Below, one piece after another: positions 31,664-51,773 of a DNA stretch of 64,000 bases (position 1 is its first letter; the number at the start of each line of letters is the position of its first letter). The notes below the pieces were generated by a model. The model was not told the origin of the DNA. It saw only the letters and a list, made by a program, of their open reading frames with translations, and searched no databases. The position numbers and the translations under genes were made by a program. The DNA comes from an uncultured Acidobacteriota bacterium (GTDB taxonomy: Bacteria > Acidobacteriota > UBA6911 > RPQK01 > JAPXNP01). Where the stretch lies: NCBI GenBank assembly GCA_963777605.1, contig CAVZRV010000031.1, positions 1-64,000 on the forward strand, in the 5' to 3' direction.

Positions 31664-32005
31664 ATGGACGAGTTCATTCGCGCCAGATCAATGCTTGCAC
31701 CGGGGATTGCCGGGGCTACTACCACGTTGATTACGGGGACCCTGGTGACCCAGTTCGACTCCCTACCCGGTAATTGGACCGCGCTGATCATCAGCTTCCT
31801 GATCGGCCTCGTGATCCTGGGCGACCGCTCGGTTTCGGGCGGACAGCGGATCCTTCTCTACTTCATCAACTCCCTGATCATCTTCTCGGTGGCATCGGGC
31901 ATCAACACCGCCGGGGTCGCAGCAACGCAAAGTCGGAAGCCGGCAACGCGGGTCCTTCAGCCGGCGGAAATGGGTCCCAAACCCTTCTTTCATGAATGGT
32001 TCTGA
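31664..32005 (+). CDS. Small multi-pass membrane protein
   Basis: Three hydrophobic segments; first gene of the + strand cluster. Confidence 0.7.
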   Translation: MDEFIRARSMLAPGIAGATTTLITGTLVTQFDSLPGNWTALIISFLIGLVILGDRSVSGGQRILLYFINSLIIFSVASGINTAGVAATQSRKPATRVLQPAEMGPKPFFHEWF

Positions 32006-32138
32006 AGGACCTTTGTGTTACAGATCACCAGGCTCGGGCCGTCCAGCGTGTCGAGACCAGTTGGAGCAAACCAGGGTGGCCTTCTCGGCGCGCCGAGAGG
32101 TAAGGCCCCCCTTTTGAGCCGGACAGAGGGAGTCCTCC

Positions 32139-32981
32139 ATGCGGACCGCAACACGTCTTTGCCTTCTGATGTCACTCGCGCTTCCGGTCGCCAACTGTTC
32201 CCTGGTTCAAGAGGCCGCCCGGCCGGTCGCCCCGGGTCAATTCCGACTGATTCGCCTGCCGGTACTCATTCTTGGGCAGGAGGCGCCCGGGCCGGCTGAG
32301 GCGAGGCTCACCCTGTCCATCGGGACCGATGATGAACTGCCTCAAGGCCCTCAGGGCTTTGAAGTCCTTCCTGACGAGAGCATTGTTGTCACCGACCCCC
32401 TGGCGCATCGCCTAGCGATTTTCGACGGCCAGGGAGATTTTTTGCGGGCCTTCGACATCGGCTTTGCCGCTGACAGCGTTCGCTTCGAAGACAGCCTGCT
32501 CCTGATCCGGCGCGCGTTCACGGGAGAGGAGTACTCACTCGATCTCACGGGAAATCTCCCGCCTCAGCTCCGTGGCCGTGCCCGCGACCTGGCGGGTGGT
32601 GACCGGGCACTGATGGTGGAGCCGGGAGTTGGAGAGATCACCCCCAGTTCAGCTCGCGGGCTGGAGCAAGCCTCTTTCCCGGTGCGGATGAATGGGGATG
32701 AGAATCCCCTGATCTCACTTCGTTATCTGGGCAGCGATAAAAACGGTTTTCATTATGTTGCCCTGGAGACCGCAGAGGTCGGAGACGCAGTTGAAGTCGC
32801 CAAGCGTCTGCGAAAATACGGGCCGAACGGCGAACTGATCGCCGAGGCTCCAGACATTCCCAACGACTACTTTGTGAGTCCGGTTGACGAGTTTCGCCTT
32901 CACGGCCAGTCAGTTTTCCACCTGGTCCCACTTCGCAACGAGGTGCGGATCGAAATCTGGGAGACCGGCGATGAGCGCTGA
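32139..32981 (+). CDS. Exported protein with NHL/beta-propeller-like segment
   Basis: Signal peptide with Cys; GPQGFEV...IVVTDPLAHRLAIFD. Confidence 0.7.
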   Translation: MRTATRLCLLMSLALPVANCSLVQEAARPVAPGQFRLIRLPVLILGQEAPGPAEARLTLSIGTDDELPQGPQGFEVLPDESIVVTDPLAHRLAIFDGQGDFLRAFDIGFAADSVRFEDSLLLIRRAFTGEEYSLDLTGNLPPQLRGRARDLAGGDRALMVEPGVGEITPSSARGLEQASFPVRMNGDENPLISLRYLGSDKNGFHYVALETAEVGDAVEVAKRLRKYGPNGELIAEAPDIPNDYFVSPVDEFRLHGQSVFHLVPLRNEVRIEIWETGDER

Positions 32982-33025
32982 GGCCTCGGACGGACAGACC
33001 CGGCAGGATAAACGGTGAAACCTCG

Positions 33026-33670
33026 ATGAAAGCCATCTCCCGAATCTCGATTATTGCGCTCGCATCCGGGATGCTTTTCACCCTCCGGGGCCAGCCGGTT
33101 CGTGAATTGCCTCCCCTGACACGTGACCAGATCATCAGCACTGCACGCCAGTTCGCGGAACACCGGTGGACCTGCAAAGAGAGAAACCGCCACGCTCCGT
33201 GCGTCCCCAGCGGTTACTCCAGTGACTGGAAGGCCCAAGAGACCGTAACCGGGGTTCCCTACGATTGGGGCGGCATGGACTCGCCCGAAGTCTTCGACAG
33301 AAAGCTGGCTTCGGGTCAGGCGGCCGGCTCTCATTCCAGGCACGGAATTACCGACTGCACTGCGGGCATCGATTGCTCGGGTTTCGTCTGCTTTTGCTGG
33401 GGCCAGCCGGCTGTACACGAGTTTTCGACCCAGACCATTCGGTCCATCTCGGGGCGGCCCCGATACAACTGGTACACGGACATGAAGCCCGGAGATGCCC
33501 TCAATAAGCCCGGCAGCCACGTGGTGTTGTTCGCCGGGTACCGGCCGGATGGGAATCCCATAGTCTTCGAGGCTTCCGGCAGTGCAGGCAGGGTAATTCT
33601 AAACGACTGGAGTACTTGGTCCCGATTCAAGGGCTACTACCCTCTCCAATACAGCAGGGTCGTGCAATGA
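33026..33670 (+). CDS. Secreted NlpC/P60-like cysteine peptidase
   Basis: PYDWGG, GIDCSGFV, KPGDAL....SHVVLF. Confidence 0.8.
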   Translation: MKAISRISIIALASGMLFTLRGQPVRELPPLTRDQIISTARQFAEHRWTCKERNRHAPCVPSGYSSDWKAQETVTGVPYDWGGMDSPEVFDRKLASGQAAGSHSRHGITDCTAGIDCSGFVCFCWGQPAVHEFSTQTIRSISGRPRYNWYTDMKPGDALNKPGSHVVLFAGYRPDGNPIVFEASGSAGRVILNDWSTWSRFKGYYPLQYSRVVQ

Positions 33671-33692
33671 GACTCCCTCCTGGAGGATTAAG

Positions 33693-35738
33693 ATGAGAGC
33701 ATCCTGGCCTACCATCATTCTTTGCCTCACTTGCCTGCTTGTCGGCTGTTCGGACACTACCGGCGTGCCAGATTCTTCGAGTCCTTCGGGCCGCCGGCAG
33801 GAGTTTGGGCAACCGCCAGCCGGCAGCGAAGTCGAGTACGCTGACCCGACCCGACCGGCAACCAAGTGGGCACTGCTAGTGGGGATTAACGAATATCGTT
33901 ATCCTTCCCGGGTGTCTTCCCTGGCCGGCTGCGTCAACGACGTTGAGCTGATGAAGAGCGTGTTGATCGGGAAGTACGAGTACCCTGAAAGCCAAGTCCT
34001 GGTACTAACCAATGAGGCCGCTACCCACCAGGGGATTCTCCATGCATTCAGGGACCACCTGATTCGCAACGCCCAGCGCGATGACGTAGTCATTTTTCAT
34101 TACAGCGGTCACGGTTCGCAAATGCGAGACACTTCCGGGGACGAACTGGACGGCTGGGACGAGACGCTGGTCCCCCATGACAGCCGGGATCCGGAAGGTA
34201 AGGTTTTCGATATCAGCGACGACGAACTCAACACGCTTTTCCTCGAGCTCCAGCAGCGCACGCGAAATATCACGTTCATACTCGACAGCTGCAACTCGGG
34301 TACGGCTCTTCGAGCCGCAGGAAACGTCCGGAGGATCGCCCCTGACGAACGCACGCCGCCGGCTGAGCCTGGCGATTCCGGAACGCGGGGCGTCAGTGAA
34401 GGGTCCAACGATTGGAGGCCGGACAATCTCAACTACACTCTGATTTCGGGATGCCTTGCCGGAGAAAGTTCCTTTGAGCACTGGGCTGACAACCGGGAGC
34501 ACGGTGCCCTAACCTACTTCCTGGCCAGCCAGTTACGACAGGCAAGTCCCCAAAGTACCTACCGCGATGTCATGGATGCGGTCAGTGGAAAGGTCAACGC
34601 CCGCTATCCCGCTCAGCACCCTCAATTGGAGGGCGCGGGCTCGGACAAGGTCATTTTCGGGGACACTACCGTCCTGGCGAGACCCTTTGTCCTCTGCTCT
34701 CCACGGAGCCAGGGCACGGTTGAACTTCAGGCCGGCCAGGCATACGGAGCGACCATTGGCTCGGTTTTTGAGATCTTTGCCCCCGGCACGAAAGACTTCG
34801 GCAACACGGATAATCCCCTTGGCAGGTGCCAGGTGACACAGGTCGGGAATTTTAGTTCCGTCGCGAAACTGTCTACTCCGGTCACCATCCCGAACTTCTC
34901 CCGGGCGGTTGAATGGGATCACAGCTACCCGGAGTTTCGCCTGCGGGTCCATCTCCAGGGACTGGGGAACTCGCCGGCGCTGCGGGGAGTCCGGGAGGAA
35001 CTGGAGCAGTATCACCACCTCGAGTTCCAGCTGCAGCCCCGTGACTACCACGTACTGTTGCGCCAGGCCGGTGCTGAAATTGTCATGGAAGGGGGAGACC
35101 AGACGGAAATTGCACCCCGTACTCCCATCGACGACGCCGATGCTGTGGGGCTCGTGGTCCGCCGAACCCTGGATTGGGCCAAGTGGTTCAATATTCTATC
35201 GATTGCAAACCCGTCTCCGGGTCTCGATGTTCGATTGTCGGTTTCGGAGGCGGAGGGGGACGGAGGACGGGGGACCCCACTCCGCCGGATCGGGGCTCCG
35301 ACGCTCGTGCTGCAAGACGGTCAAGCGTTCGAGTGCAAGGTCGAAAACCGGTCGGACAAGGGCGTCTATCTTTCGATCCTGGATCTGTCCACGGACGGCA
35401 GCGTATCGATGGTGTATCCCCAATCGGGCACCGCCGACTTGCTGGTCCCAAACGGTGTCTGGCAGCGGCGCCTGAACACCTTTGTGCCAGATGGTCGGAG
35501 CTCCGTCAGGGATGTACTGAAAGTGTTCGCGACAACGAGCCCGGTGGACTTCCGATTCCTGCAACGGGACCCAGTGCGAGGGGGAGTCGCGCCGGAGGAG
35601 TTGAGCCGAAGCCTCGGGACGCCCTTGCGACAGCTGATTTCGTCGGTCGCCCTCGGCACGACCCGGAACGTGTCTTCCCCGGTTCCCTTGGGGGACTGGA
35701 GCACTTCCGAGCAGGTGATTGAAGTCAGGCGCGAGTAA
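33693..35738 (+). CDS. Lipoprotein caspase-family (C14) protease with C-terminal DUF4384-like domain
   Basis: LLVGC lipobox, ALLVGINEY, HYSGHG, DETLVPHD, LDSCNSG, HGALT, QHPQLEG. Confidence 0.9.
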   Translation: MRASWPTIILCLTCLLVGCSDTTGVPDSSSPSGRRQEFGQPPAGSEVEYADPTRPATKWALLVGINEYRYPSRVSSLAGCVNDVELMKSVLIGKYEYPESQVLVLTNEAATHQGILHAFRDHLIRNAQRDDVVIFHYSGHGSQMRDTSGDELDGWDETLVPHDSRDPEGKVFDISDDELNTLFLELQQRTRNITFILDSCNSGTALRAAGNVRRIAPDERTPPAEPGDSGTRGVSEGSNDWRPDNLNYTLISGCLAGESSFEHWADNREHGALTYFLASQLRQASPQSTYRDVMDAVSGKVNARYPAQHPQLEGAGSDKVIFGDTTVLARPFVLCSPRSQGTVELQAGQAYGATIGSVFEIFAPGTKDFGNTDNPLGRCQVTQVGNFSSVAKLSTPVTIPNFSRAVEWDHSYPEFRLRVHLQGLGNSPALRGVREELEQYHHLEFQLQPRDYHVLLRQAGAEIVMEGGDQTEIAPRTPIDDADAVGLVVRRTLDWAKWFNILSIANPSPGLDVRLSVSEAEGDGGRGTPLRRIGAPTLVLQDGQAFECKVENRSDKGVYLSILDLSTDGSVSMVYPQSGTADLLVPNGVWQRRLNTFVPDGRSSVRDVLKVFATTSPVDFRFLQRDPVRGGVAPEELSRSLGTPLRQLISSVALGTTRNVSSPVPLGDWSTSEQVIEVRRE

Positions 35739-35885
35739 GCTGATCCCGATGGTGGCCAGGTATGAGATTTTGACGCAGTCGAAAATCGACCCTCTGGGAG
35801 TCTATTTCAAGCGAAAGGCCAAGATGAATTCTGTCATTTCTGGCGTATCCGGGAATTCGCCGACTAAATCGAGGGAGGGCCCAGC

Positions 35886-37931
35886 ATGTCGCTGATCCGA
35901 CTCACAGCCGCATTCACTCTAGTCGCTCTACTGGTCAGCTGCCAGACCACCGACGTTCGGGATCGCGGAGTCGTGCTCAAGCCCGAACCACTTGAGATCA
36001 GCGATTTCGGCACCTTCCGCGCCCTAATCATCGGCATCAACGGTTACAAGCATTGGCCGGTCCTCCAGTTTGCGGAATCGGACGCGCGAGACATCCGGGA
36101 GATATTGATCTCCAGCTACGGTTTCCAGCCTGAGAACGTACTGTCTCTCATCGGGTCGGAGGCGACGGAGAGCCGCATCCTGAACTCACTGAAAAGCCTG
36201 CTGAACCAGGCCACCGGGCAGGACAACATCCTCGTGTATTACGCAGGACACGGTCAACTGGATCCGCTGACTGACACGGGCAACTGGATACCGGTCGACG
36301 GAGAGCTTTACGACGAGTCCTCCTGGATTCCATTTTCCGTCGTTCGAACTCTCGTCACGGCCGAAAAGGTGAAGGCGGGAAGGATCCTGATCATTACCGA
36401 TTCCTGTTACGGTGGAGCGCTGGCTCGCTCCGGGCCGACTCCGGGAAAGCTCAATCCCGAGGACTCCGGTTATATCGAGTCATTGAAGAAAGTGCTTGGC
36501 AAGAAGAGCCGCCAGACCATAGCGTCCGGCGGGTTCGAGCAGGTTCCAGACCGAAGCCATTTTGCTGAGCTGCTGAAGGGCGCCCTCCGAATGAACCCGT
36601 ATCCGGTGATTGACATGGAGTTCATCTTCTACACCGAAGTGTTTCCCCATCTCAGGCTCATCGGGACTCAGTACCCGACTATGGTTCGCATGGTGAACGG
36701 GCCGGAGGAGAACGGACAATTCATTCTCGTCAAGGACGGCGCGACCCTGGATGCGCTGAACAGCGAAGAGGGGGAAACGGACGACAGACCCGATCAGACC
36801 CCGAAAGAGCCGGACGCCAAGACCCAGGCGGACATGGAGTTCTGGAATGAGATCAAGGACTCTTCGGACCCTGAGTTTCTGCAGGAGTACCTCCGTCAGT
36901 TCCCGGACGGGATCTTTGCCCTGATTGCCCAGAAACGCCTGGACGACTTGATTTCACCCGATCAGCCGAGCTTGAGGGTTCCCAAGCTTGTGGGGATGAA
37001 CGTCAAAAGCGCGCTGGACATCCTGGTTGGACTGGGGTTCAAAGAAGGCCGCATCACCACCGAGAACAGCGGAGCGAGCGACGGCACGGTACTTACGCAG
37101 GACCCGGCTCCCGAGTCCCCTGCTGCCGATGGCGCATTGATCAATCTGGTCGTGGCCAAAGCGTCGGAAAAACTCAGAATGCCCCAACTCATCGGCTCCA
37201 GCCGCGCCAAAGTGGCAGACGCACTCGCCAAGTACGGACTGCTCATTGGAAAAGTAGCGTACGTCAGTCCGAAGGAGGCCGGAGTAAAGGAAGCGGGCAT
37301 CGTGGTGAAGCAGTCTCCTGAGCAGGGAATACCGGTCGAACCGAAGACGTCGGTCGACCTCGTTTTCACTCAGTGGGAGTTGACTGTGCCGGACCTGGCC
37401 GATATGCCTGAAGAGCGGGCGGTCGCGCTGATCCAGAAATCCGGCCTGACGGTCGGCGAGATCAAGCGGGTCCAGAAAGGCGAGGTCGGCAAAGTCATCG
37501 GCCAGTCACCCAGGGCCGGAACTCCGGTTGAGCCCGGCGCTGAAATCCTGCTCTATATAGCTTCGGCGTCCCCAGGCAAGTCTCTCGAAGCCATTGCGAA
37601 GTCGAGAAATATCGTCGCCCGGACTCTGAACCCCAGCTTGGCTGCCCCTGGCCTCAACAGCCCATCCAATGGGCAAGTGTTCGGTCACTATCCCCGCAAG
37701 ACTGAATTGAGCTGGAACCCGGTTGGAGGGGCGGTGAGCTATGTTGTTGAAGCCGAGTTTCAATCGGGCTCGGTCTGGCAGCCTCTCTTCACACAGGACG
37801 GCGTCGGGTCTACTCGATACACCTTCAACTTCATCGGAGCCCAGCCAGGTCGATGGAGGGTTTGGGCGATCGACTCGCATGGAAAAGCAGGACAAAGATC
37901 CGGTTGGTGGAGTTTCCGATACACCCGTTAG
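35886..37931 (+). CDS. Lipoprotein caspase-family protease with three PASTA repeats and FN3-like C-terminus
   Basis: LLVSC lipobox, YYAGHG, DSCYGG; VPKLVG/MPQLIG/VPDLAD repeats each followed by V..QxP. Confidence 0.88.
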   Translation: MSLIRLTAAFTLVALLVSCQTTDVRDRGVVLKPEPLEISDFGTFRALIIGINGYKHWPVLQFAESDARDIREILISSYGFQPENVLSLIGSEATESRILNSLKSLLNQATGQDNILVYYAGHGQLDPLTDTGNWIPVDGELYDESSWIPFSVVRTLVTAEKVKAGRILIITDSCYGGALARSGPTPGKLNPEDSGYIESLKKVLGKKSRQTIASGGFEQVPDRSHFAELLKGALRMNPYPVIDMEFIFYTEVFPHLRLIGTQYPTMVRMVNGPEENGQFILVKDGATLDALNSEEGETDDRPDQTPKEPDAKTQADMEFWNEIKDSSDPEFLQEYLRQFPDGIFALIAQKRLDDLISPDQPSLRVPKLVGMNVKSALDILVGLGFKEGRITTENSGASDGTVLTQDPAPESPAADGALINLVVAKASEKLRMPQLIGSSRAKVADALAKYGLLIGKVAYVSPKEAGVKEAGIVVKQSPEQGIPVEPKTSVDLVFTQWELTVPDLADMPEERAVALIQKSGLTVGEIKRVQKGEVGKVIGQSPRAGTPVEPGAEILLYIASASPGKSLEAIAKSRNIVARTLNPSLAAPGLNSPSNGQVFGHYPRKTELSWNPVGGAVSYVVEAEFQSGSVWQPLFTQDGVGSTRYTFNFIGAQPGRWRVWAIDSHGKAGQRSGWWSFRYTR

Positions 37932-37981
37932 CGGAGAGGAACCACAAGTGAGTCCCCCCAATTTCTAAGGAGATTCAATTC

Positions 37982-38338
37982 ATGAAAAAGAAGCTATCAA
38001 TGGCCGATCACAAGACCCTGTCACTGGTGTCAAGTGTCCTGCTGCTGTGGTCCTTTTCCCAGACCATGGCTGTCCCTCCGCTCTTCTTCCGGCCCGAGCT
38101 GGTCCAACCAGCGGCAACCGTTTGCCCGGGGCCCGCGGAGGGGTTTGAGCTGCTCGTTCAAGACGCAGACGCTGACCGAGGTTGCTGCCAGTGGAAAGAC
38201 TCCAAGGGAAACAAGTGCTCCTATACGAACCGGGGTTACTGCCGCAAGAAGGCTGAAGAACTTCAGGTCCAGTTCGAGTTTCACAAAGACAAGACCTGCC
38301 AGACGGTTGGCGGCTGCCCGGCGGTGACACCCCCTTGA
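37982..38338 (+). CDS. Small secreted Cys-rich protein
   Basis: AAGGAG RBS, signal peptide, 7 Cys in the mature part. Confidence 0.7.
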   Translation: MKKKLSMADHKTLSLVSSVLLLWSFSQTMAVPPLFFRPELVQPAATVCPGPAEGFELLVQDADADRGCCQWKDSKGNKCSYTNRGYCRKKAEELQVQFEFHKDKTCQTVGGCPAVTPP

Positions 38339-38570
38339 AGCTCGCTGAACCATCGCGTGAAGTTCTTGTGAGTGAAATTCACGAAATCACGGGACTCTTG
38401 GCTCTGCTGAGGATATAATCGCTCTCAAATATCCAATCCATTCCATCATCAAGTACGGGTTCCAGATAACTTGAAGCCTTCCTGAAGAAAACCCGGGCTG
38501 GTGTCCAGGTTAGATGGTCGGTTTCTGCTGGCCCGACGCACTGCACCATCACGGTGCGAAAGGGGGGACT

Positions 38571-38891: not shown

Positions 38892-38916
38892 TCCCACAGA
38901 TTCCACTGGAGGAGTC

Positions 38917-39738: not shown

Positions 39739-39748
39739 AAAGGCTGGA

Positions 39749-40453: not shown

Positions 40454-40507
40454 CGAAAACAGTCCAGCGCCCTGCTCAGCAGCAGCGGCGCCATTCCACG
40501 CCGCTGT

Positions 40508-42765: not shown

Positions 42766-45322
42766 TCACCGTCTCGATTTCGTGCTCTCCTGAGCAAAAG
42801 AGCCAGGTTTCGGGCAGCGTTACCGTTTCCAGAAACTCGCGCCTGGAGGAAGATTCGTAGCTGAGGCCTCCATTGTCAGATCGATGAACACCCTCGCTCG
42901 TACCGGTCATCAAGAACCGATGGTCAACATCGGAGGCCAGTGATCTGATCGAATGGTACTTCCCCACCTCACGCATCGGGAGACCGCAGCCGACTTTCGG
43001 CGGCTGCCACTTGGGCTCGTGAGAGGCCGGCTCGATCTTGAAGACTCCGGCCTGGTCCGTCGCCGCGAACAACACCTCGCCTTGAAAAGCCAGTGCCCAG
43101 CAGGTTCCTCCCTGCCATCCCTCACTGAAGAACTGCCCTTCCAACTGAATCTGGGAGCCCCGGAGCTCCCACCGGTAGCAGCCCTTTCCCTCCGCTTTCC
43201 CGGGAACTGCAATGCCGGCCCACAAATAGCGAAGGGGACCAACTTCCTGAACCTCGAGCACCCTGACATCTTCTCCTTCCAGGCCAATCCGCGTGAAACT
43301 GCCGGCCTTCGCTCCTTGAGTGGAGAGAAAGACACCAACAACGCCTCGCCCCGCGACCGCAACCGACACCTCCCCCTGGGCATCTGACGACGACGCCACT
43401 GCGTAGAATCCCAGATCCTGGTTGCCAGGCTCGACCAGAATCTGGAGGGGGACTGCCTCCGGCTTCATCGCAAGTTCATAAAGCCCGACGTCCGTGGCCA
43501 GGATCAGGATCGGCTCTCCTTCCCTATTGATCCAGTCCATGTCAAAGACGGTGAAACCCGTTTGAGCGGCCCTGCGCCACGTCTCACCACAGTCAGATGA
43601 GACGTGGACCCGTGAAGCCCCCGGCTCTGACTCCACTGCCGAGGTCACGGCCAGCAACCCGGGCCGGGACCGATGGACCTTAACCTGACGCAAATCCTCT
43701 CCGGGGAACCTGCCTGCCGTTTCCCACCCGTTACCGTCGTCCAGCGACCGGAATAGAACAGAGCCGGCAGCCGCATACCAGGCACCCCTCTGGAAGGTAT
43801 CCGCGGCGATCGAGGTCACGTCCCTTTCGGGCACCTCGTCGACGAGAAGTCGAACCTGATCGGCGTAGCTCACGCCCGAGTCGGAAAGCAGGAGGTCATA
43901 AACGTGGGATGCCCGCAAGGGATAACCGAACCTCCAGCCAGCAGATCGCTCCGAGGGGAGTGGATTGATGGCCGAATGGAGCCGGTCCAGGACCCGGGTC
44001 CTCACCGCCTCAGGCGATTCCCCCATGTGAACAACAACCCGCGCTTTGATGCGAACCTGCTTGTAGCGAACCCAGTTCACCAGGCAGGTGGTTCCCAGGG
44101 GTCGCCTGCGATCCAACTCTCCCTGAATTCTCTCCCTTTCGGTTTCCGTCTGGTGCTCGGACAACGTATCCAGCGACACCCGTTCCCCGCTCCGGGCCGC
44201 CTCAAGAACATTCGGAACCAGCAAAACCTCCACAGTCCCCGGCGCCGCGTGGACCCAGAGAGCAGCCTTTGTAAACGCCTTGGCGCGGGCTACGGCCCCG
44301 GAAGCCCGCAGGGCAGCCAACTCATAGTCTCGACCGGTCACTGCCCGGCTGAGTGACCTCAACTCCTGGGGCCCTCTGATTAGGGCGTTCTCCAGGCTTT
44401 CTGTGTTCCTTCCGCCGGTGGCCGGAGTAGGATTGACCACACTGATACCGGGAAGGGGATCGCGAAGGACTGTGAGGAGCCCGGCGCTTACATTACCCTC
44501 GGCTCCGCCTCCATGACGATACCACAATCTGATTTCCCGTTCCGCCGGAGGAACCTCGGCCAGGAGACTCGACGAATCGGCCAGCATCTGACCGGAGGCG
44601 GACATCCGGGCAGATGGTGCGAAGACGATGCTTCCAGTGAAGCGGTCGGCCAAATAGACAAAGCGCTCCCGTTCAATGTCGGTAAAACTGCCGACCTCTC
44701 GCCAGATCCGGAAGGCCTTTCCCTGGAATTCGACGGCCCTGGCCCGGCCGTCCAAGGCTGTGCGATCCGTTTCGACGCCGACCATGAGGTCCAAATCATC
44801 TCCCGTTGGAGAGATCAACGGAGAATGGGAGGTGTACACCCTTTGGCCGGCCAGCCCAGTTCCTCGACCCGCGAGTTCTCCTTCGACCAGTTCGCAGTGA
44901 CAGGCGAGGACATCTACTCCCGAGGCTTCGGGAGTAAGGGTTGCGGACGCGGTCGTCGCAAAGGAGACAATCTTCTGGGCACTGCCTCCCCTGGCCATGG
45001 TTACCCGGGTTCCCCGGGGGACCTCGAGGGATGCCGTCCCGGGGCGACTGCGACTGAATCGGAGCATAACCTGGGCGGCCGAAGGCGGCATCAATTGAAC
45101 TCCCATCAAGCGCAGAAATTCGATGAATGCCTTCTCTGGAAGCCGGTTCAGGCGGTAGATCATCGCTTCAGTGAGATAGGCGAAGAGCTCGAGCAGGACC
45201 ATGCCGGGATCGCTGGGAGAGAAGTCGGTCCATTCCGAGGTCTGTTGTGGAATCCGACTGCGTGCCTCCTCCAGGAGTTGCCGAAAATCACGATCATCGA
45301 GGTTTGGCGGAGTCAGAGACAT
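42746..45322 (-). CDS. CIS baseplate J-like protein fused to an Asp-box beta-propeller
   Basis: PNLDDRDF, WTD.SPSDPG..LLELFA, GGG..GNV, RAVT..DYE; SLDDGNGW, SSDCGETW, SDNGGLSY. Confidence 0.9.
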   Translation of the reverse strand: MSLTPPNLDDRDFRQLLEEARSRIPQQTSEWTDFSPSDPGMVLLELFAYLTEAMIYRLNRLPEKAFIEFLRLMGVQLMPPSAAQVMLRFSRSRPGTASLEVPRGTRVTMARGGSAQKIVSFATTASATLTPEASGVDVLACHCELVEGELAGRGTGLAGQRVYTSHSPLISPTGDDLDLMVGVETDRTALDGRARAVEFQGKAFRIWREVGSFTDIERERFVYLADRFTGSIVFAPSARMSASGQMLADSSSLLAEVPPAEREIRLWYRHGGGAEGNVSAGLLTVLRDPLPGISVVNPTPATGGRNTESLENALIRGPQELRSLSRAVTGRDYELAALRASGAVARAKAFTKAALWVHAAPGTVEVLLVPNVLEAARSGERVSLDTLSEHQTETERERIQGELDRRRPLGTTCLVNWVRYKQVRIKARVVVHMGESPEAVRTRVLDRLHSAINPLPSERSAGWRFGYPLRASHVYDLLLSDSGVSYADQVRLLVDEVPERDVTSIAADTFQRGAWYAAAGSVLFRSLDDGNGWETAGRFPGEDLRQVKVHRSRPGLLAVTSAVESEPGASRVHVSSDCGETWRRAAQTGFTVFDMDWINREGEPILILATDVGLYELAMKPEAVPLQILVEPGNQDLGFYAVASSSDAQGEVSVAVAGRGVVGVFLSTQGAKAGSFTRIGLEGEDVRVLEVQEVGPLRYLWAGIAVPGKAEGKGCYRWELRGSQIQLEGQFFSEGWQGGTCWALAFQGEVLFAATDQAGVFKIEPASHEPKWQPPKVGCGLPMREVGKYHSIRSLASDVDHRFLMTGTSEGVHRSDNGGLSYESSSRREFLETVTLPETWLFCSGEHEIETVSEHEPE

Positions 45323-45753
45323 CAGGAGGCCTCTCCGGACAGGTTGAAGGGAAATGAAAGTCGGGCCCTCTCCAGCGTTTTACGCACCCGGTACTCCAGA
45401 AGAATGTCGAGTCTGCCCGGGTCCGACTTGTTCGGTTCAGCATCCAGAAAGAGGATCTCGATCCGGGGTTCCCACCGGACCAGGCACTGTCGGACATAAT
45501 GAATCGCAAGACCGGCAGTCGTTTGATCGTTAGGCGAAAACTGGAGCCGGGCCAGTTCGCACCCGTACTGGGGGCGCATCACCCGCTCACCGGGGCGCGT
45601 GGAGAGCAGGAGGAAAATGGCCTGTCGCACTGAGGCCTGATCCTCAACCATCCCGATTCCTCCCGTTGGGGAGATGCGAATACCTGCATCGCTTTCCGGA
45701 ACATCGAGGTCAGGGAGATCGAATCGCCACGCCCGATATCTTGGAACCGTCAT
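45322..45753 (-). CDS. CIS GPW/gp25 baseplate protein
   Basis: LLSTRPGERVMRPQYGC, RWEPRI. Confidence 0.92.
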   Translation of the reverse strand: MTVPRYRAWRFDLPDLDVPESDAGIRISPTGGIGMVEDQASVRQAIFLLLSTRPGERVMRPQYGCELARLQFSPNDQTTAGLAIHYVRQCLVRWEPRIEILFLDAEPNKSDPGRLDILLEYRVRKTLERARLSFPFNLSGEAS

Positions 45754-46094
45754 TCCGTCCCCTCCCCCACAAGGTCCTGTCCCGGGTTTCTCACTTTGTA
45801 ATCAACCGTTCCCGGCGGAGTCCCGTCGGTCAGCCCGCGCACGCTCTCCAGGCAAACCTTGCGGCTGTCAATCCGAAGGAGATCCGAGTAGCCCACTCGG
45901 ACCTTCAGGGTCACCTGGCATGGCTTGATTCCGATCCCGACGTTTGGACAGCCCTTGATCTCTTTCCTTTCGGGATCGGCTTCGACCAGCACTCTGCGGT
46001 CCTCGACCGTAACCAGGTCCTGCGTGGGCGGCACCTCAATGTTGCCCAATTCGTGCAGGCAGACGAGAATTGCGTCTTCGGTCAGCCAGTTCAA
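45750..46094 (-). CDS. PAAR-like spike tip protein
   Basis: C.H, GCP....PC metal-ligand pattern; between VgrG and gp25. Confidence 0.7.
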   Translation of the reverse strand: MNWLTEDAILVCLHELGNIEVPPTQDLVTVEDRRVLVEADPERKEIKGCPNVGIGIKPCQVTLKVRVGYSDLLRIDSRKVCLESVRGLTDGTPPGTVDYKVRNPGQDLVGEGTE

Positions 46095-47615
46095 TCATGC
46101 CCTCCGAAAATCAATGTTGCTCCCTCGAATCACAATCGGGTTTCCAGGTGCCCGGATCTCGAGACCGGTCATGGCGTGCAAAAGCACCTTCTCGGGGGTC
46201 AGTTCCACAAAGCTGCCCTGGCTATTCTCGAGGCGAATGCGGGACCCGGAGTCGTCCAGGGTAATCTTCTGACCAGCTGGCGTCTGCAAGGTATACCTGC
46301 GGACTCGGCCGTCCTCGAGGCCCCAGTCGGGAACGGACTTGACTCCGAACAGGCCTCCAAGGACAACCCCCTGGCTGAGATCCTCACGGGCAAACAGCAC
46401 CAGCACCTGATCGTCCAGGTCGGGCAATGCCACCAGCCCTTTGCCAGCTCCGGCCCCGACTGTGACCACCCCCAGCCAGTTCGTCTCGATTCCCCCGAGC
46501 GATGGCAGGACCGCCTGGATCCGTCCCAGACCTTCGGGATCATCAACACTCGTCACAACCCCAACGGTTACGATGGGGCCTCGAGCGCGTTGCGAGAACG
46601 GTGCAACCGCGGTCGACAACTCCGACAGGTGACCTCGGGCGGCGTCAACTGTGTGGGTCACCTCGGTCACGACATAGTCTCCATCCAGAGAAGCGCCCAG
46701 CCCATCGACCTCGGCAACCACCCCGGGCTCCAGATCGGAATTGCCCGCAGCTATTCCCCAGAGCACAACTTCGTTGGCGATGCGGATGTCGAGTTCGGCC
46801 TGAGCCGTCGCATCGGCCAGGGCGTCATCGGTCCAGACATCGTTCAAAATCAGGCGCTCTCCGGTTCCCCCGAGCCGGCCAGGCGAGACTTCGCGCGAGA
46901 TCCGGCGACCGTTACGACCCGCCTCCGCCTCGCCGCGACGTTCTTCAACCCGACCCAGATCCCAACCGAGTGATGCGACACTTCTGCATGAAGGATCACC
47001 GTTGATCTCTACTCGCGCTTCAAGGAGCGTGGTTCCGACCGAGAGCGGCACCCGCTGATCACGTCCGGCGAGACTGAAGAGCTGCACTGAAGGCCCATCG
47101 AGGAAGAAGAACAAACCGGCACGCTCACAGGATTCTCGCAACAACTCCAAATCCGTCTGTCCCCACTGCGCCAGGCGATTCCAGACCGGCCCGGTTTCCC
47201 CGGCCTCGATGGAAAGACCCAGGTCCCCGACCAGTTCGCGGGCCAGCCCCTCACAATTCAGCGAAGTGAAAACTCGGGTCGGCTGGCGCTTCTGGAGCCG
47301 ATGGAGCAGGTCATAAGCTCGAATCGTCATCAGATGTCCGCCCGCACTTTCAAAAACGTGTTCAACCGCGGTGATCTCGCCTTCAAAAATGGAGCCGGAA
47401 AGACCTTCGGCCTCAACCCGCAATTTGGATCCTGGTTCCACCGGACTCGCCGGTTCTCCTCGATTGGGTGGATCCAGAAAGGTCAGTATGCAAAGTGCAG
47501 GCATCGAAAGGCGCTGCTGAACCCGGACCGCACCGAGATTGCCGTGCCGCACTGGATCGGTCGCAGTGCCATCGATTTCGACAATGATCGAGGGCACGGA
47601 TGCCGAATGCGCCAT
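46095..47615 (-). CDS. VgrG-like hub/spike protein
   Basis: Q..QTDLELL, GVVT..DDPEGLGRI, G...LP...DQVLV.F, G.KI.LDD. Confidence 0.9.
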   Translation of the reverse strand: MAHSASVPSIIVEIDGTATDPVRHGNLGAVRVQQRLSMPALCILTFLDPPNRGEPASPVEPGSKLRVEAEGLSGSIFEGEITAVEHVFESAGGHLMTIRAYDLLHRLQKRQPTRVFTSLNCEGLARELVGDLGLSIEAGETGPVWNRLAQWGQTDLELLRESCERAGLFFFLDGPSVQLFSLAGRDQRVPLSVGTTLLEARVEINGDPSCRSVASLGWDLGRVEERRGEAEAGRNGRRISREVSPGRLGGTGERLILNDVWTDDALADATAQAELDIRIANEVVLWGIAAGNSDLEPGVVAEVDGLGASLDGDYVVTEVTHTVDAARGHLSELSTAVAPFSQRARGPIVTVGVVTSVDDPEGLGRIQAVLPSLGGIETNWLGVVTVGAGAGKGLVALPDLDDQVLVLFAREDLSQGVVLGGLFGVKSVPDWGLEDGRVRRYTLQTPAGQKITLDDSGSRIRLENSQGSFVELTPEKVLLHAMTGLEIRAPGNPIVIRGSNIDFRRA

Positions 47616-47618: not shown

Positions 47619-48359
47619 CTAGCTCCTTTCCCCGTGGATCGATGGGATTCTGAGCAGAGCGCCCGACGCGATTCGGAGCGGATCCTCCACGTTATTGGCC
47701 CACGCGATCAGCCTCCAGAACACCGGACTTCCATAGCGGCGAAACGCGATGTCCGACAGACTCTCGCTGGCTCTTCCTCCATCCGGATCCGTGCCCCCGA
47801 TCACCTCGAAAACCCCGTCCGTGTCCTGCGGTTCGCCCGAAACGGACTCAGTTGATAAAGCAGCAGGCAGGCTTTCGGGAGCGTTCTGCGCCTCTTTGAA
47901 CATCTCCGGAACGCGGACGAGTCTCATCCGCAGCCAGGATCTTCTGGGCGATCCGACCGAATCGAACTGCTCGAACCGCTCCGAGACTGCGGTAATAACG
48001 CCGGGAATGTTCCAGATTTTGCCCCAGACGAACCGAACGACTGGAGGCCTGGCTGAAGATCCGTCGGAGGCGCTGTTTTCGGCCAGCTGCCAAAGGGGGG
48101 CCGTCAGATTCCGAACGTTTTCGGTCTGAATGGATGAACCGGACAGCGTCGTGTCGAAGAGCAGGTCCAACGTCAACTCCGTGGTTCCTCCTCCGGTGAA
48201 CACCAGGGGATCGTCGGATAGTCCTCCGCCGGACACCCGGCCATTCAGCGATTTTCGGGCCTGAACACCGGCCAGTCGCCGCACCACGAGCGAGTCCGGG
48301 TTGAGGAGACACCGGATGCGTTCCCCGGTTTCCTCGACGAGAAGGGCTACCCGTTCCAT
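47619..48359 (-). CDS. CIS tube initiator with LysM-like C-terminus
   Basis: NP..L, L.LDLLFDT, PPVVRFVWG, F...G.PRR, IA.RRYG....WRLIA..N...DP. Confidence 0.85.
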   Translation of the reverse strand: MERVALLVEETGERIRCLLNPDSLVVRRLAGVQARKSLNGRVSGGGLSDDPLVFTGGGTTELTLDLLFDTTLSGSSIQTENVRNLTAPLWQLAENSASDGSSARPPVVRFVWGKIWNIPGVITAVSERFEQFDSVGSPRRSWLRMRLVRVPEMFKEAQNAPESLPAALSTESVSGEPQDTDGVFEVIGGTDPDGGRASESLSDIAFRRYGSPVFWRLIAWANNVEDPLRIASGALLRIPSIHGERS

Positions 48360-49390
48360 CGTCTACCTTCCTGTTCCCGACTGAGCCGCCTCTTTCGCTT
48401 TTCGTCCTGCTCCCCCGATTGGATCTCAGCGTACCAGTCCCCGCCCGGGTCAAGGAGGGACGGCCACGGATCATCCGGTGGCAGTGGGAACTGACCCGGC
48501 CGGACATCCGCAATCGGCTGACTGAGGTTCAGCTGACTTGCTCCATCTGGTGAAAGCACAAACGCGGCAGTGCTCAGCGGCTCGAACGGCGCTGGAAACA
48601 CGCCGGCTCCCGGTAAGGTTGCGACGGCCTGCTCCGTAACGTTCCGGCCGGGCACCGTCGCGCCCGGGTCCCGGCGGTCACCTCCCCCATGCGGAGGAAG
48701 AACCCTGGCGCGGTTCCCGTTGAGTCGGTTTTCCGCGATCGCTGCTTTCTGGTTCTGGGGGCAGGTAAAGGGTAGCTCCCGTGAAACTGGTTTGGCAATC
48801 GAATGGCGTACTCCTCCGGGACCCGCAACGGAAGCAGGTTCGGAAGCGGAACTCTCCTCAGACAATCGACCCTCGACCAGACGATTCCGGGTTACAGATA
48901 CGCCTTCTTTTCTCCGCTGGAAAGCCGTTTCCTTCCGATCTGTCGACCCGTCCGAATCTGACGGTTCAACCGGAGGAACGAACGCTGAGCCGGAGTCCCG
49001 CGATTCAAGCGCCCGGTGGCTCACAACCGCGGGTTGGAAAACGGGCTGAGGTCGGCCTTCCCGATCAGTCCGAATCCCTTTGACGCGGCGAGACCTTACC
49101 CCAGGCTTTCTTCCCTGACCCCAGTGGACCCACTTCAGCTCCCCGGCCTTTATGGATTTGCCGGCACCGTACTCGGAACGTTCCCGGATGTGCTCCAGCC
49201 AGTGCGGCGGGGGCTCGGGATAGCTCGCCAGAAAAGCCCGTTCGAGCCAATCCGGCGCCACAGACGGGCGGTGAGGAGACATTGGCGGTCTGCGGTCGAA
49301 CCCGAGTTTTCCTGCCAGCACGTTGCTCCAGGCGATGACTATGCGAAGCAATCTGAGAAAGAGTCTTCTTGCCAGATCGAGCAGCATCAT
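48347..49390 (-). CDS. CIS-associated low-complexity hypothetical protein
   Basis: Tightly packed between the tube and initiator genes; Pro/Ser/Arg-rich. Confidence 0.6.
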   Translation of the reverse strand: MMLLDLARRLFLRLLRIVIAWSNVLAGKLGFDRRPPMSPHRPSVAPDWLERAFLASYPEPPPHWLEHIRERSEYGAGKSIKAGELKWVHWGQGRKPGVRSRRVKGIRTDREGRPQPVFQPAVVSHRALESRDSGSAFVPPVEPSDSDGSTDRKETAFQRRKEGVSVTRNRLVEGRLSEESSASEPASVAGPGGVRHSIAKPVSRELPFTCPQNQKAAIAENRLNGNRARVLPPHGGGDRRDPGATVPGRNVTEQAVATLPGAGVFPAPFEPLSTAAFVLSPDGASQLNLSQPIADVRPGQFPLPPDDPWPSLLDPGGDWYAEIQSGEQDEKRKRRLSREQEGRRWNG

Positions 49391-49393: not shown

Positions 49394-49876
49394 TTAGCCT
49401 CGATCCAGAGATTCGAATACCAACGTGATTGACTCAATGGCGGCTTCATTCGTCAAGGCATCCAGCGGAGCTCCACACCATTCGGCAGGCCAGGCATTAA
49501 TCAAGTTCCAACGGAGCATCTCGGTCACCCCATCAGCATCGAGCATCACAATCGAGACATTCCGGCGTTCGACCCGACCCTGAACGGCGGTCAAAAACCA
49601 CTCCCACAGGTCGGTTGATGTCGTCAGACCGTATCGCAGGGTGATGTCCCCATAATCAACCTGGCCCGGCAGCCTGCGGACCACCTGGCTGGTCCCACCC
49701 TCACGATAACGAATGGCATCGACACTGATACGCATACCGCTGCAGGCAGTGAAATGACCCTCGGTCACACCCTGGACTTCGAGTTTGAAATTGTAAGCGC
49801 GGAAGGGATCCACCCAACCACCTGTCTGAGCGCCTGTTTCTGTCTCCTGAGGCGGGGTTTCGGCAGGTTCCGGCAT
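49394..49876 (-). CDS. CIS tail tube protein (T4 gp19-like)
   Basis: DPFRAYNF, YREGG, PG...Y.DITLRYG, W....AWP..W. Confidence 0.92.
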   Translation of the reverse strand: MPEPAETPPQETETGAQTGGWVDPFRAYNFKLEVQGVTEGHFTACSGMRISVDAIRYREGGTSQVVRRLPGQVDYGDITLRYGLTTSTDLWEWFLTAVQGRVERRNVSIVMLDADGVTEMLRWNLINAWPAEWCGAPLDALTNEAAIESITLVFESLDRG

Positions 49877-49888
49877 GGTTCATCTCCT

Positions 49889-51082
49889 TTATTCGGTTTC
49901 GATTTCGGCACCGGAGGCACTCTGGCCAATCCGGAAAACGATAAATTCAGCAGGTTTTACGGGGGCCATTCCGATCAGAATGACGACGCGGCCAGCGTCG
50001 ATCGATTCCGGGGGATTGGTCTCTTCGTCGCATTTGACGAAAAATGCCTCTTCTGGAGTGCGCCCCATCAAGGCACCGTCCCTCCAGATATTGGTGAGAA
50101 AGGCGCTCACATCACGCCGGATCTTCTTCCACAGGGTCTGATCGTTCGGCTCGAAAACGATCCACCGGGTACTGTTCGCGATTGACTCCTCGACCATGCT
50201 GAACAGTCGGCGGACGTTTAGATACGTCCACTCGCTCCCCTGCTCGGCCAGAGTCCGGGCTCCCCAAACCAGGATCCCGTCACGGGGAAACAGGCGGATA
50301 CAGTTGACTCCGTGCTGGTTCAGTTCTCCCTGTTCCTCTCGGGTCAACCGGTACGTCACGTTCAGGGCGCCACGAATTCTCTCGTTCGCGGGAGCCTTGT
50401 GAACGCCGCGAGTGGCGTCCGACCGAGCATAGATCCCGGCCAGGTGGCCCGATGGGGCTATATCCACAAAGTCATTCGGCGGCAGCGGATCCCTCACGGT
50501 AATTCTCGGAAAGTAGACCGCCCCCCAGGGGGATGCGGGAGGCCTCAGTCCACCAGCGGGCTCTCCCTCTGACTCATCCTCGCCTGGTTTCTTCTTCTTG
50601 GTCGAGACGACGGCAACCTGCGTCAGGAGGTCCAATCTGGGGATTGCTTCCGGGCAGTCAAGGATCGCAAAGCGGTCCTTCATCCCCTCGCAGTGATCGA
50701 GCAATGCGGCGTACGAGGCCGCGTCTGCATAACCTGGTGCCGCCACGATCGCGACCTCATCGATTTCCCTGAGAACGTCGAGCCCGGATCGTTTCGTTCC
50801 CCCTCCGGAAATATCTGTGCAGTTGACCACGAAGCACCGACGTCCGCCATTGGCAAAGAAGCCATAGACCGCCTGGGACAGAGGAGTGCTGGGGCTGCCG
50901 TTCGGCACGTACTCGCCCACGAACTGGGTCCAATTGTTGATCGCAATGGCCTGGTTCACGTGCGCGCCCGCATCCGGGGCTTTTCCTACGAACCCGGCTG
51001 TACTCGTGCCGGTTGGCTGGATCGGACGAGGTCCCATCGAAACTTCTTCAACATAGATGCCCGGTGCAAGGTAGGTCGGCAT
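49889..51082 (-). CDS. CIS tail sheath protein
   Basis: PGIYVEE, RGVHKAPAN, VWGARTL, Y.NVRR, FEPND, PVKPAEF. Confidence 0.95.
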   Translation of the reverse strand: MPTYLAPGIYVEEVSMGPRPIQPTGTSTAGFVGKAPDAGAHVNQAIAINNWTQFVGEYVPNGSPSTPLSQAVYGFFANGGRRCFVVNCTDISGGGTKRSGLDVLREIDEVAIVAAPGYADAASYAALLDHCEGMKDRFAILDCPEAIPRLDLLTQVAVVSTKKKKPGEDESEGEPAGGLRPPASPWGAVYFPRITVRDPLPPNDFVDIAPSGHLAGIYARSDATRGVHKAPANERIRGALNVTYRLTREEQGELNQHGVNCIRLFPRDGILVWGARTLAEQGSEWTYLNVRRLFSMVEESIANSTRWIVFEPNDQTLWKKIRRDVSAFLTNIWRDGALMGRTPEEAFFVKCDEETNPPESIDAGRVVILIGMAPVKPAEFIVFRIGQSASGAEIETE

Positions 51083-51083
51083 G

Positions 51084-51773
51084 TCAATCCTCCATCAATT
51101 GGAATCGAATCAAGAGTGGCCCTTCATCTTTCGTCCAGCCTGGTGACGGATCCACCCGGACCTCTCGCCCCCTGGCCTTGACCTCGATCATTGCCGGAGG
51201 AGGATCCGTTGGAACTTGGGCGAAATGAAATCTGCCCTGTGCGTCGGTCGTCGTGTATTGCCCGGTTCCCGGAATCTCGATCCGAGCCCCCATCACAGGG
51301 ACATCTCCCGGGCCGAGAACTCTTCCAGCCAAAGGCCTGACCGGTGACTGCCTGACTACCAAAGGCTGCAGTACAGGTCTTGACTTCGGCTGACGGCGGA
51401 CCTGCCTGCACGGCACTCCGAGTTTGAAACTCGGCCGGGGAGAGACCCCGAAGCCCGCCCAGACAGCAGGGGAAACCCGGTTCAGGTCAAGCTGGAACTC
51501 GGCCTGCTCCATGGCGGCAAACAGCAACTGTCCCAGCCACTTATGCGCCTCCTCCGGGTCAGTCGACCAGGTGGTGACCAGGTACTGAAGGGAAACCTGG
51601 AGAGGCGGCCGAAGGTTCGTGCGAAGAGGAGGGCTGTCCGACAGTTCGAGCAAGTAAAGACTGACACCCCTGAACTCGCTGCCGGAAGGCCCCGGCTCTG
51701 TCAGAATGACATCCACTCGATCTAAAACAGCCAGGATCCAGTCACGGACCCGCCGATCGATTTCATCGATCAT
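51084..51773 (-). CDS. Pvc16/DUF4255-like CIS terminator with carboxypeptidase-regulatory-like domain
   Basis: VSLYL, L.YLVT.W, W...G...RPSF; GRVLGPGDVP..GA...TTD..GRF. Confidence 0.8.
   Translation of the reverse strand: MIDEIDRRVRDWILAVLDRVDVILTEPGPSGSEFRGVSLYLLELSDSPPLRTNLRPPLQVSLQYLVTTWSTDPEEAHKWLGQLLFAAMEQAEFQLDLNRVSPAVWAGFGVSPRPSFKLGVPCRQVRRQPKSRPVLQPLVVRQSPVRPLAGRVLGPGDVPVMGARIEIPGTGQYTTTDAQGRFHFAQVPTDPPPAMIEVKARGREVRVDPSPGWTKDEGPLLIRFQLMED

Follow-up and report, generated by a model that had tools for sequence, protein, structure and literature searches.

The contractile injection system (CIS) of Streptomyces coelicolor (CIS-Sc, type IId), the baseplate of which is contained in PDB entry 9GTP, is described as cytoplasmic (PMC12237407) and has been linked to stress-induced cell death (PMC10066040). 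The membrane protein CisA (Sco4242) is described as a largely disordered N-terminal region followed by a transmembrane (TM) segment and then by a C-terminal domain which is conserved and similar to substrate-binding or carbohydrate-degrading domains; it is reported to be required without being part of the particle, its signal is given as unknown, and how cytoplasmic injectors find the membrane, as well as what sets them off, is named as an open question (PMC12237407). The proteins Sco4256-4258 are reported to combine a common N-terminal domain that resembles pilus chaperones with one TM segment and a C-terminal domain that varies, to be present in purified particles and to be required for a filled tube lumen as well as for CIS-dependent death (PMC10020575, PMC10066040). 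Here, a related locus is described that occupies positions 31664-51773 of a 64,000-nucleotide stretch (the window) at the start of contig CAVZRV010000031.1 from an uncultured Acidobacteriota bacterium of soil, and in which a CIS operon converges on an operon encoding two exported caspase-type proteases. The block is a real conserved unit, combining a membrane module which is found throughout this CIS lineage and was not found in print with an association with exported caspases that is recurrent and, in this case, very elaborate.

Injectors related to type IId are described as having spread across phyla by transfer, with cytoplasmic particles in Streptomyces, Chloroflexota and Deinococcota (PMC12998442). 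The same account reports the Chloroflexota and Deinococcota particles to be free in the cytoplasm and, in its available part, mentions no membrane module, PASTA domain or caspase.

Injection system and nearest relatives

The CIS operon on the − strand (51773-40508, 11.3 kb) and the nine-gene operon on the + strand (31664-40453, 8.8 kb) meet tail to tail, with stop codons at 40453 and 40508 and 54 nt between them. This convergence had been proposed in an initial annotation made from the sequence alone, together with the lack of an insertion-sequence scar, and indeed no transposase is seen in the block. Families were assigned by a Pfam scan of the 21 open reading frames (ORFs) of the block and 22 ORFs of its flanks. 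Sheath, tube, tube initiator, spike, gp25, Baseplate_J, P2_I and a Pvc16-like cap lie in one cluster, nine CIS genes giving Pfam matches of 1.5e-5 to 2.6e-38, and by its predicted products the cluster is a contractile injection system with an Afp/PVC-type core.

Among all PDB sequences Cis11 is matched best by 9gtp (6.8e-56), the next entry being 7aeb (1e-5), which we take to be AlgoCIS. The sheath is closest to 8bky/9gtp (2.9e-100), ahead of the sheaths of Anabaena, PVC, Afp and AlgoCIS. By both proteins the nearest solved relative is thus the cytoplasmic Streptomyces CIS, to which the initial annotation had pointed. The lineage is probably Streptomyces-like, type IId-like and cytoplasmic, an assignment by best match; published trees of the IId class use the sheath plus Afp11.

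The locus shares with CIS-Sc the best solved matches for sheath and Cis11, the lack of a tail fibre (no tail-fibre family was found among the 43 block and flank ORFs scanned) and a single-pass membrane protein encoded just after the baseplate genes. It differs in its diderm host, in a C-terminal region of about 360 extra residues in Cis11, in the PASTA nature of the outer domain of its membrane protein, in its exported caspases and in the lack of a recognisable CisA, as judged by the published description. An AAA+ ATPase is likewise missing from the 21 block and 22 flank ORFs, a scan that did not extend to positions 1-15 kb of the window or to the rest of the genome. In contrast to CIS-Sc as far as it is described, a polytopic membrane protein and a small TM protein with a Cys domain appear as conserved partners. 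Families of the type VI secretion system (T6SS), namely the TssJLM membrane complex, the TssBC sheath and ClpV, were not found among the same 43 ORFs, the rest of the genome lying outside that search. A further membrane-associated system is the thylakoid-anchored CIS of Anabaena, as cited in PMC10020575. It differs from the window system in anchor type and membrane, and the window sheath matches that of Anabaena (7b5h, All3325; 1.4e-56) less well than that of Streptomyces. Reportedly, a fibre-like baseplate protein uses its TM helix to hold the Anabaena particle at the internal membrane, and a role in cell death has been proposed for the particle.

Following the direction of transcription, the − strand operon encodes the cap Cis16 (51084..51773, Pvc16_N with a CarboxypepD_reg-like domain), the sheath Cis2 (49889..51082), the tube Cis1 (49394..49876), a 347-aa protein of no family at the tape-measure position (48347..49390), the tube initiator Cis7 (47619..48359, CIS_tube), the VgrG-like spike Cis8 (46095..47615), a 114-aa protein of no family at the spike-tip position (45750..46094), which is kept in most loci, the gp25-like Cis9 (45322..45753) and the baseplate wedge proteins Cis11 (42746..45322, Baseplate_J) and Cis12 (42214..42765, Tail_P2_I), sheath, tube, spike and gp25 being assigned by Pfam as well. 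The 347-aa protein is hypervariable. Its copy in G014 (locus L007), a genome of the same family and another genus and the nearest relative to carry the locus, has the same length, but only residues 1-93 can be aligned (34% identity), while the adjoining genes are 66-88% identical, which marks this segment as fast-diverging or swapped. The extension of Cis11 (residues ~500-858) is conserved in all full-length relatives and absent from the 652-aa Streptomyces Cis11 chain; it gives a weak NCBIfam match to the F510_1955 glycosylhydrolase family (1.5e-6), and Asp-box-like motifs ('SxDxGxTW') can be recognised by eye. A promoter and terminator scan of 31000-42200 returned fewer sites than in shuffled sequence, no tRNA gene lies within the window, and 12 proteins of the locus have no match in PHROGs.

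Related loci were collected in a contig scan of one genome per species, in which an alignment of Cis11 found 231 relatives and a single Cis11 protein as query found none. The locus counts given below refer to the best 80 of these 231, which stem from Blastocatellia, Chloroflexota, Gammaproteobacteria, Verrucomicrobiae, Cyanobacteria, Trueperaceae, Cellulomonas and many Micromonospora. For 53 of the 80 loci the sequence extends 6 kb or more past Cis11, and for the other 27 it ends sooner. All ORFs of the 80 loci were searched with the window proteins.

Membrane module

The protein encoded after Cis12 (41020..42021, − strand, 333 aa) consists of a PapD-like domain, a TM helix and two PASTA domains (Pfam PASTA, 2.6e-24). 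Its AlphaFold2 (AF2) model (pLDDT 88) depicts a β-sandwich spanning residues 1-111, a helix from 123 to 145 and the two PASTA domains. Foldseek relates the latter to the PASTA domains of PknB (5e-8) and PrkC, and the N-terminal domain to PapD-like/ASH and fimbrial-chaperone folds (PapD-like 6fvi, 8e-6; FaeE chaperone, 3e-5). Judged by the missing signal peptide, the ordered N-terminal domain and the position of the PASTA domains behind the helix, the protein is predicted to be single-pass with its N-terminus inside. A tail fibre had also been considered for this gene and was dropped in view of the N-in single-pass topology and the ordered PapD-like domain. As in PknB, PrkC, StkP and PBP2x, a PASTA fold (5e10, 5.3e-08; 3py9, 2.2e-07) is located outside the membrane right after a TM helix; unlike in these kinases and PBP2x, no kinase or transpeptidase domain is present and the inner part is PapD-like, or, in the case of caspase 2 described below, a protease is attached. 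The ordered N-terminal domain does not fit the published description of CisA. In its modelled architecture the protein matches the description of the Sco4256-4258 family, in which a similar N-terminal domain and a single TM segment are combined with a C-terminal domain that is variable and binds carbohydrate or wall.

The N-terminal 125 residues recur in 75 ORFs at 47 of the 80 loci (single-pass phmmer), and these ORFs, referred to here as the PapD-TM family, form arrays of one to five copies directly after cis12. PASTA follows the membrane helix directly in 43 of the 75 ORFs, so the CIS-side PASTA is a lineage-wide feature and not one confined to this locus. Kelch, DUF346, F5/8 type C, FG-GAP, thioredoxin and chagasin-like inhibitor domains are found in the outer part of other members. 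Since these outer domains are binding modules rather than enzymes, a role as sensor or adaptor is favoured over one as toxin, against the published label 'effector'. At locus L039 (13907-15049, + strand) the C-terminal end of a PapD-TM-PASTA protein is formed by a chagasin-type cysteine-protease inhibitor domain (I42, 5.6e-9), another link between the PapD-TM family and cysteine proteases.

The last gene on the − strand (40508..41010) encodes a small bitopic protein of about 165 aa with a TM helix and a Cys domain (small TM-Cys protein). It replaces a 131-aa ORF which had been listed as the last − strand gene, the N-terminal 80 codons (ATG at 41010) lying in another frame. A DNA alignment with G014, where the counterpart is intact (~172 aa, with an N-terminal membrane helix), traces the frameshift to a 1-nt deletion in a run of C near 40798, and the gene also shows a 21-nt in-frame deletion; the frameshift may be an assembly error or may mark a real pseudogene. 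Small TM-Cys proteins follow the PapD-TM genes elsewhere as well, seven single seeds matching 1 to 18 of the 80 loci.

Convergent to this gene, the last gene of the + operon (tm256; 39683..40453, likely start 39746) encodes a polytopic membrane protein that matches none of the families in Pfam, NCBIfam, PHROG or PADLOC. Its AF2 model is an all-helical bundle (pLDDT 93.6) that has no PDB fold match at E <= 1e-3; the ESM Atlas/Foldseek search was uninformative, with TM domains of YiiP/ZnT transporters as best match (TM-score ~0.5, E 6e-3). Homologues with 33-53% identity are encoded at 57 of the 80 loci, 50 of them among the 53 loci with the longer flank (all except L008, L058 and L065) and 7 among the 27 shorter ones. 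In Micromonospora cis12, the PapD-TM gene, the small TM-Cys gene and tm256 follow each other in this order on one strand; in most diderm loci tm256 is inverted and converges on the CIS operon, as in the window. The earlier view of the + strand cluster as an independent envelope operon does not agree with this distribution. PapD-TM-PASTA protein, small TM-Cys protein and polytopic tm256 thus form what is, by sequence, a conserved predicted membrane module.

Two further membrane-protein genes of the + operon have counterparts at CIS loci. The first gene, tm113 (31664..32005, 113 aa, no family), has orthologues in G014 (79% identity) and in G020, a genome of another family with a fragmented assembly (46% identity), and a clear homologue in an accessory operon of L019 (3.7e-22); the matches it gives at 14 Micromonospora loci (1e-4 to 1e-6) are weak and doubtful. 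For the seventh gene, tm125 (38514..38891, 125 aa), homologues are found at the CIS loci L007, L019 and L029, so that tm113 and tm125 are both clearly represented in the accessory operon of L019, which is convergent as well. The last + gene is an accessory gene of the CIS lineage by these comparisons, and the first and seventh probably are. With accessory genes of the lineage at its edges the + operon appears framed by them, the hydrolase genes lying in between.

Iterated hidden Markov models built on whole ORFs gave higher counts, which possible drift limits (71 of the 80 loci for the PapD-like N-terminal domain or IgN family, 56 for the small TM-Cys family and 31 for an HExxH protein); the tm113 model had clearly drifted onto neighbouring ORFs and was not relied on. 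The HExxH protein is a 317-aa polytopic membrane protein with the motif 'HERTH' (L009, 15859-16809), which recurs in 25 loci in the single-pass search, including those of Micromonospora and Cellulomonas, and is absent from the window.

Exported hydrolases and their linkage to the injection system

Between the small membrane-protein genes the + operon encodes two caspase-type lipoproteins of 681 aa each. Caspase 1 (33693..35738) matches Peptidase_C14 with 2.3e-27 (96.6 bits against a cut-off of 21.4) and carries the lipobox LVGC, the motifs YSGHGSQ and DSCNSG and a C-terminal region of about 360 aa of no family. Caspase 2 (35886..37931; 4.3e-14, 53.2 bits against the same cut-off; lipobox LVSC; YAGHGQ and DSCYGG) harbors three PASTA copies and a C-terminal domain. 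The dyad His and Cys, H140 and C200 in caspase 1, are invariant in three orthologues of each protein, and both are by these matches members of Peptidase C14 with an intact predicted dyad, as the initial annotation had read them. The PADLOC model 'caspase' is matched with 2.4e-22; a match to the NCBIfam family caspase_w_EACC1 (1.7e-12) is below its cut-off. PASTA domains occur, as had also been noticed, on both sides of the junction, in caspase 2 (2.1e-32) and in the 333-aa protein of the CIS operon (2.6e-24), with Pfam scores of 111.3 and 85.4 bits, above the cut-off. They are predicted to be placed outside the membrane in either protein, by the lipobox or the preceding TM helix.

Conflict-system caspases are known as cytoplasmic proteins. 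With these clan-CD proteases the window caspases have the Peptidase_C14 domain and the intact dyad in common; they differ in being lipoproteins or secreted, in their fusion to surface-binding domains and in the lack of an NTPase or sensor neighbour.

The NlpC/P60-like cysteine peptidase (33026..33670, 214 aa) is the weakest of the gene calls in the block. Its Pfam match (E 0.0039, 17.6 bits) is below the cut-off of 23, and a profile of 24 sequences finds only two chains in the PDB, 8er5 at 0.011 and Spr 2k1g at 0.074. Both of these are NlpC/P60 proteins, and Cys117, within 'DCSGF', and His165 are invariant in the 24 homologues; the initial call to this family is kept as a weak assignment. In metagenomes 244 homologues were found, the 120 listed having 50-75% identity; close copies among 401 Acidobacteriota genomes are restricted to the window genome (G000; 6.7 Mb in 53 contigs) and G014.

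The remaining members of the operon comprise a 280-aa protein of no family (32139..32981), the N-terminal signal sequence of which is read from the translation, a secreted Cys-rich protein of 118 aa, also of no family (37982..38338), and a Ceramidase/CREST-type hydrolase with seven TM helices (38917..39738). The 280-aa protein has 'VANC' in place of a canonical lipobox. It has a counterpart only in G014 (58% identity), its sole family match is weak and NHL-like, and no relationship could be detected to the 300-aa ORF that occupies the equivalent position in L019. The Cys-rich protein, which carries a signal peptide, adjoins caspase 2 in the window, in G014 and in G020 alike; it and the membrane proteins of the + cluster had been anticipated, as had the CREST hydrolase, which scores above the Pfam cut-off (PF05875, 2.3e-10, 40.8 bits against 32.5). 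The CREST gene is missing from the G014 block, and a relative is found near the CIS in L044. Both caspases and the NlpC/P60-like, Cys-rich and 280-aa proteins carry predicted Sec or lipoprotein export signals.

In G014, 20 of the 21 block genes are kept in the same order, all except the CREST gene, and none of 10 flank genes; since the synteny of the block holds in spite of different flanks, a chance neighbourhood is excluded. For G020, the four contigs examined account for 15 of the 21 genes. One contig there has the caspase-PASTA gene and then the Cys-rich gene directly upstream of cis16, all on one strand, and on another contig caspase 1 is situated between the homologues of tm113 and tm256, diverging from tm256. 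Caspase genes thus adjoin close CIS homologues in both genomes. In a class-wide table of 137 genomes the caspase-PASTA orthologue (E <= 1e-40) is present in three, Cis11 in the same three and neither in the other 134, which agrees with the co-occurrence that the initial annotation had proposed to look for. Across the 401 Acidobacteriota, full-length Cis11 relatives are found in G000, G014 and G336 and the caspase-PASTA orthologue in two genomes; G336 encodes the CIS, two PapD-TM genes, a small gene and tm256. One unpublished genome (G018) enters the tallies only among the genomes without match. C14 + PASTA protein clusters number about ten in existence. Such genes are rare genome-wide. The window genome holds at least five C14 genes, of which two lie within the block, and only four PASTA ORFs, again two of them within the block; the only detectable PASTA relative of the 333-aa CIS protein in its own genome is caspase 2.

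Across the CIS lineage, Pfam-confirmed clan-CD proteases were surveyed at the 80 loci in up to 10 kb of flank and are encoded at seven (L007, L009, L013, L030, L049, L052 and L058). L007 contains two orthologues of the window caspases. L009 encodes a secreted caspase together with an FGE-sulfatase between the spike-tip gene and gp25 and a secreted caspase-TPR protein after tm256, and L013 a caspase-TPR protein directly upstream of gp25. In L030, from Methylomonas aurea, a CHAT protein is accompanied by a lipoprotein Sel1-caspase, the stop codon of which directly adjoins the start of cis16. L049 encodes both a caspase and a CHAT protein, L052 (Cellulomonas) a caspase and L058 a CHAT protein, while an eighth locus, L031, has an FGE-sulfatase with a sub-threshold C14 match. 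Apart from those of L007, these proteases are 23-35% identical to the window caspases and differ in architecture. In a FastTree of 71 Cis11 sequences the protease-bearing loci are on separate branches, and the window groups with G014 and G020 in a single clade (support 0.95). Separate branches and different architectures fit several independent recruitments plus one in the window clade. Of the C14 (PF00656) matches in the genomes concerned, 5 of 10 are on the CIS contig in L009 and 1 of 2 in L049; of the five Peptidase_C14 genes on the L009 contig (G043:C385, 33-53 kb), one is part of the operon, another comes right after tm256 and the remaining three lie no more than 8 kb further on. The genetic coupling of caspase genes and CIS is well supported. 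It stands within the window clade and extends to caspase or CHAT genes at CIS loci of other phyla, whereas 73 of the 80 loci carry none; together with G336 these mark the proteases as optional for the CIS lineage.

Upstream of the block, three tandem tyrosine recombinase genes (15204-18432, + strand; Phage_integrase 4e-28, 2e-20 and 2.5e-35) presumably resemble recombinase-in-trio elements. They are followed on the + strand (20182-30637) by genes for a patatin + DUF3376 protein of 1060 aa, a protein of 754 aa that belongs to no family, a PEP-CTERM protein bearing a CBM96 domain and an 836-aa protein of the GH10 xylanase family. On the other side (52292-53729, + strand) a 115-aa ORF, by eye a HigB/RelE-type toxin, overlaps the start of a gene for a helix-turn-helix (HTH) + M78 peptidase protein (PADLOC PD-Lambda-2_B, 4.2e-33); this pair, which points away from the CIS promoter region, has no conserved counterpart in G014. 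In the Chloroflexia locus L029 a TIR-domain protein (17261-18919, − strand; 1e-15) is encoded directly beside tm256.

Proposed function and alternative readings

The reading favoured here, to which we assign about an even chance, regards the locus as one unit of ~20 kb, in which a Streptomyces-like CIS and its conserved membrane module are joined by inserted exported hydrolases and act in envelope breakdown or cell death. In the window clade, the gene order is best explained if an exported set, apparently comprising the two lipoprotein caspases, the NlpC/P60-like peptidase, the Cys-rich protein and the 280-aa protein, was inserted between small membrane-protein genes of the accessory operon. 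Location of the particle, docking, sensing, order of events and outcome are what we infer, and the envelope-sensing proteolytic cascade and membrane-docked CIS of the initial annotation likewise stay proposals. The particle would assemble in the cytoplasm and be brought to the inner membrane by the membrane module, the PASTA ectodomains of which would signal the condition of peptidoglycan or of its precursors. In combination with peptidoglycan-tethered periplasmic proteases, firing would then lead to regulated envelope breakdown or cell death, the proteases acting either upstream, by processing the ectodomain of the module, or downstream as executioners.

Several points weigh against this reading. 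The exported enzymes would reach the periplasm by Sec regardless of CIS firing, so that a regulatory link has to be assumed. Of the 80 related loci, 73 are free of caspase and CHAT genes in up to 10 kb of flank, and 35 kb of the third acidobacterial locus, G336, contain no caspase. The three caspase-PASTA genomes belong to one CIS clade, so that one acquisition event may account for their association. In the window assembly the small TM-Cys gene carries a frameshift, and the block lacks the AAA+ ATPase which published extracellular CIS and Streptomyces clusters are described to carry (PMC10020575). Kinship of the PapD-TM family to Sco4256 is proposed from architecture and fold and not from sequence comparison. 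The genome-wide family counts are lower bounds, the caspase of L052 having been missed and later confirmed by Pfam.

The caspase, CHAT and TIR genes could alternatively be common cargo of conflict or cell-death islands, accumulating beside the CIS on shared mobile regions without any coupling. The patchy distribution and the different flanks of G000 and G014 are in line with such a picture, and so are the HigB-like gene with its HTH-M78 (PD-Lambda-2_B-like) neighbour, the three tandem integrases and the TIR protein adjoining tm256 in L029. Moreover, 18 metagenome loci with distant caspase relatives (25-39% identity, found with the caspase-PASTA alignment as query) contain no CIS genes. Independent cargo is nevertheless unlikely, as caspases are located inside operons (among the accessory genes in the window, between spike-tip and gp25 genes in L009 and at the start of cis16 in L030), the adjacency survived rearrangement in G020, and PASTA is common to caspase 2 and the CIS membrane protein, the latter having caspase 2 as its sole detectable PASTA relative in the genome.

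Quite unlikely, too, is a lysis or release cassette, in which the + operon would free an extracellular CIS by means of holin-like small proteins, the envelope-degrading NlpC/P60-like enzyme and the caspases, as in tailocins. A peptidoglycan-peptidase-like enzyme and membrane proteins of 113 and 125 aa do occur in one operon beside a phage-tail-like cluster, and Streptomyces particles are reported from the extracellular medium too (PMC10020575). However, the hydrolases have their own signal peptides or lipoboxes and would need no holin, and NlpC/P60 and caspases are missing from 73 of the 80 loci, while tm256 and PapD-TM are nearly universal. The block ORFs scanned include no tail fibre or receptor-binding protein, and the nearest characterised relatives are cytoplasmic.

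An interbacterial weapon, fired outward from the inner membrane in the manner of a T6SS with PapD-TM-PASTA proteins as wall-acting effectors and proteases that protect the producer or process cargo, would account for the tandem arrays, in which one to five paralogues differ in their outer domains and which resemble polymorphic effector arrays, and for the naming of Sco4256-4258 as effectors toxic in E. coli (PMC10066040), but it is improbable given that nearly all variable domains (PASTA, Kelch, F5/8 type C, FG-GAP, chagasin-like inhibitor) are binding modules and not enzymes or toxins, that no immunity-like gene varies alongside, the gene following being of a conserved family, and that T6SS membrane-complex families were not found among the ORFs scanned.

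The initial annotation had not recognised the arrangement as described. This holds for the literature searched, although the architecture on the CIS side itself matches the published Sco4256-4258. No paper was found that joins a PASTA domain with a contractile injection system; among the matches listed, none relevant links caspases to CIS, and in a further search the listed titles and abstracts name no CIS membrane partner besides CisA. The words caspase, PASTA and transmembrane do not occur in the main texts of PMC8213781 and PMC12923769. Some accessory genes may already be listed in the supplementary tables of PMC10020575 (homologues of Sco4256 and Sco4242) and PMC8213781.

As to how cytoplasmic injectors find their membrane, a broader conserved membrane module is indicated by the window locus together with its 80 relatives, and the PASTA domains suggest peptidoglycan or its precursors as input. 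Nisin, which binds lipid II, is of relevance here. It is reported to trigger CIS-dependent death in Streptomyces (PMC10066040). That PapD-TM-PASTA, small TM-Cys protein and tm256 are generally the docking-and-trigger apparatus of cytoplasmic IId-type injectors in different phyla, which senses the cell wall by way of PASTA and to which several diderm and monoderm lineages have attached caspase or CHAT proteins independently as executioners, is put forward as a tentative and rather doubtful generalisation. Tractable cultured carriers of related loci are available in Methylomonas aurea SURF-1, Cellulomonas sp. ATA003 and Micromonospora strains. Two separately studied cell-death toolkits would be linked by the recurrent insertion of exported caspase-type proteases and, if the proposal is true, the outcome would be a bacterial suicide pathway built around a phage tail, triggered by wall damage and assisted by caspases.

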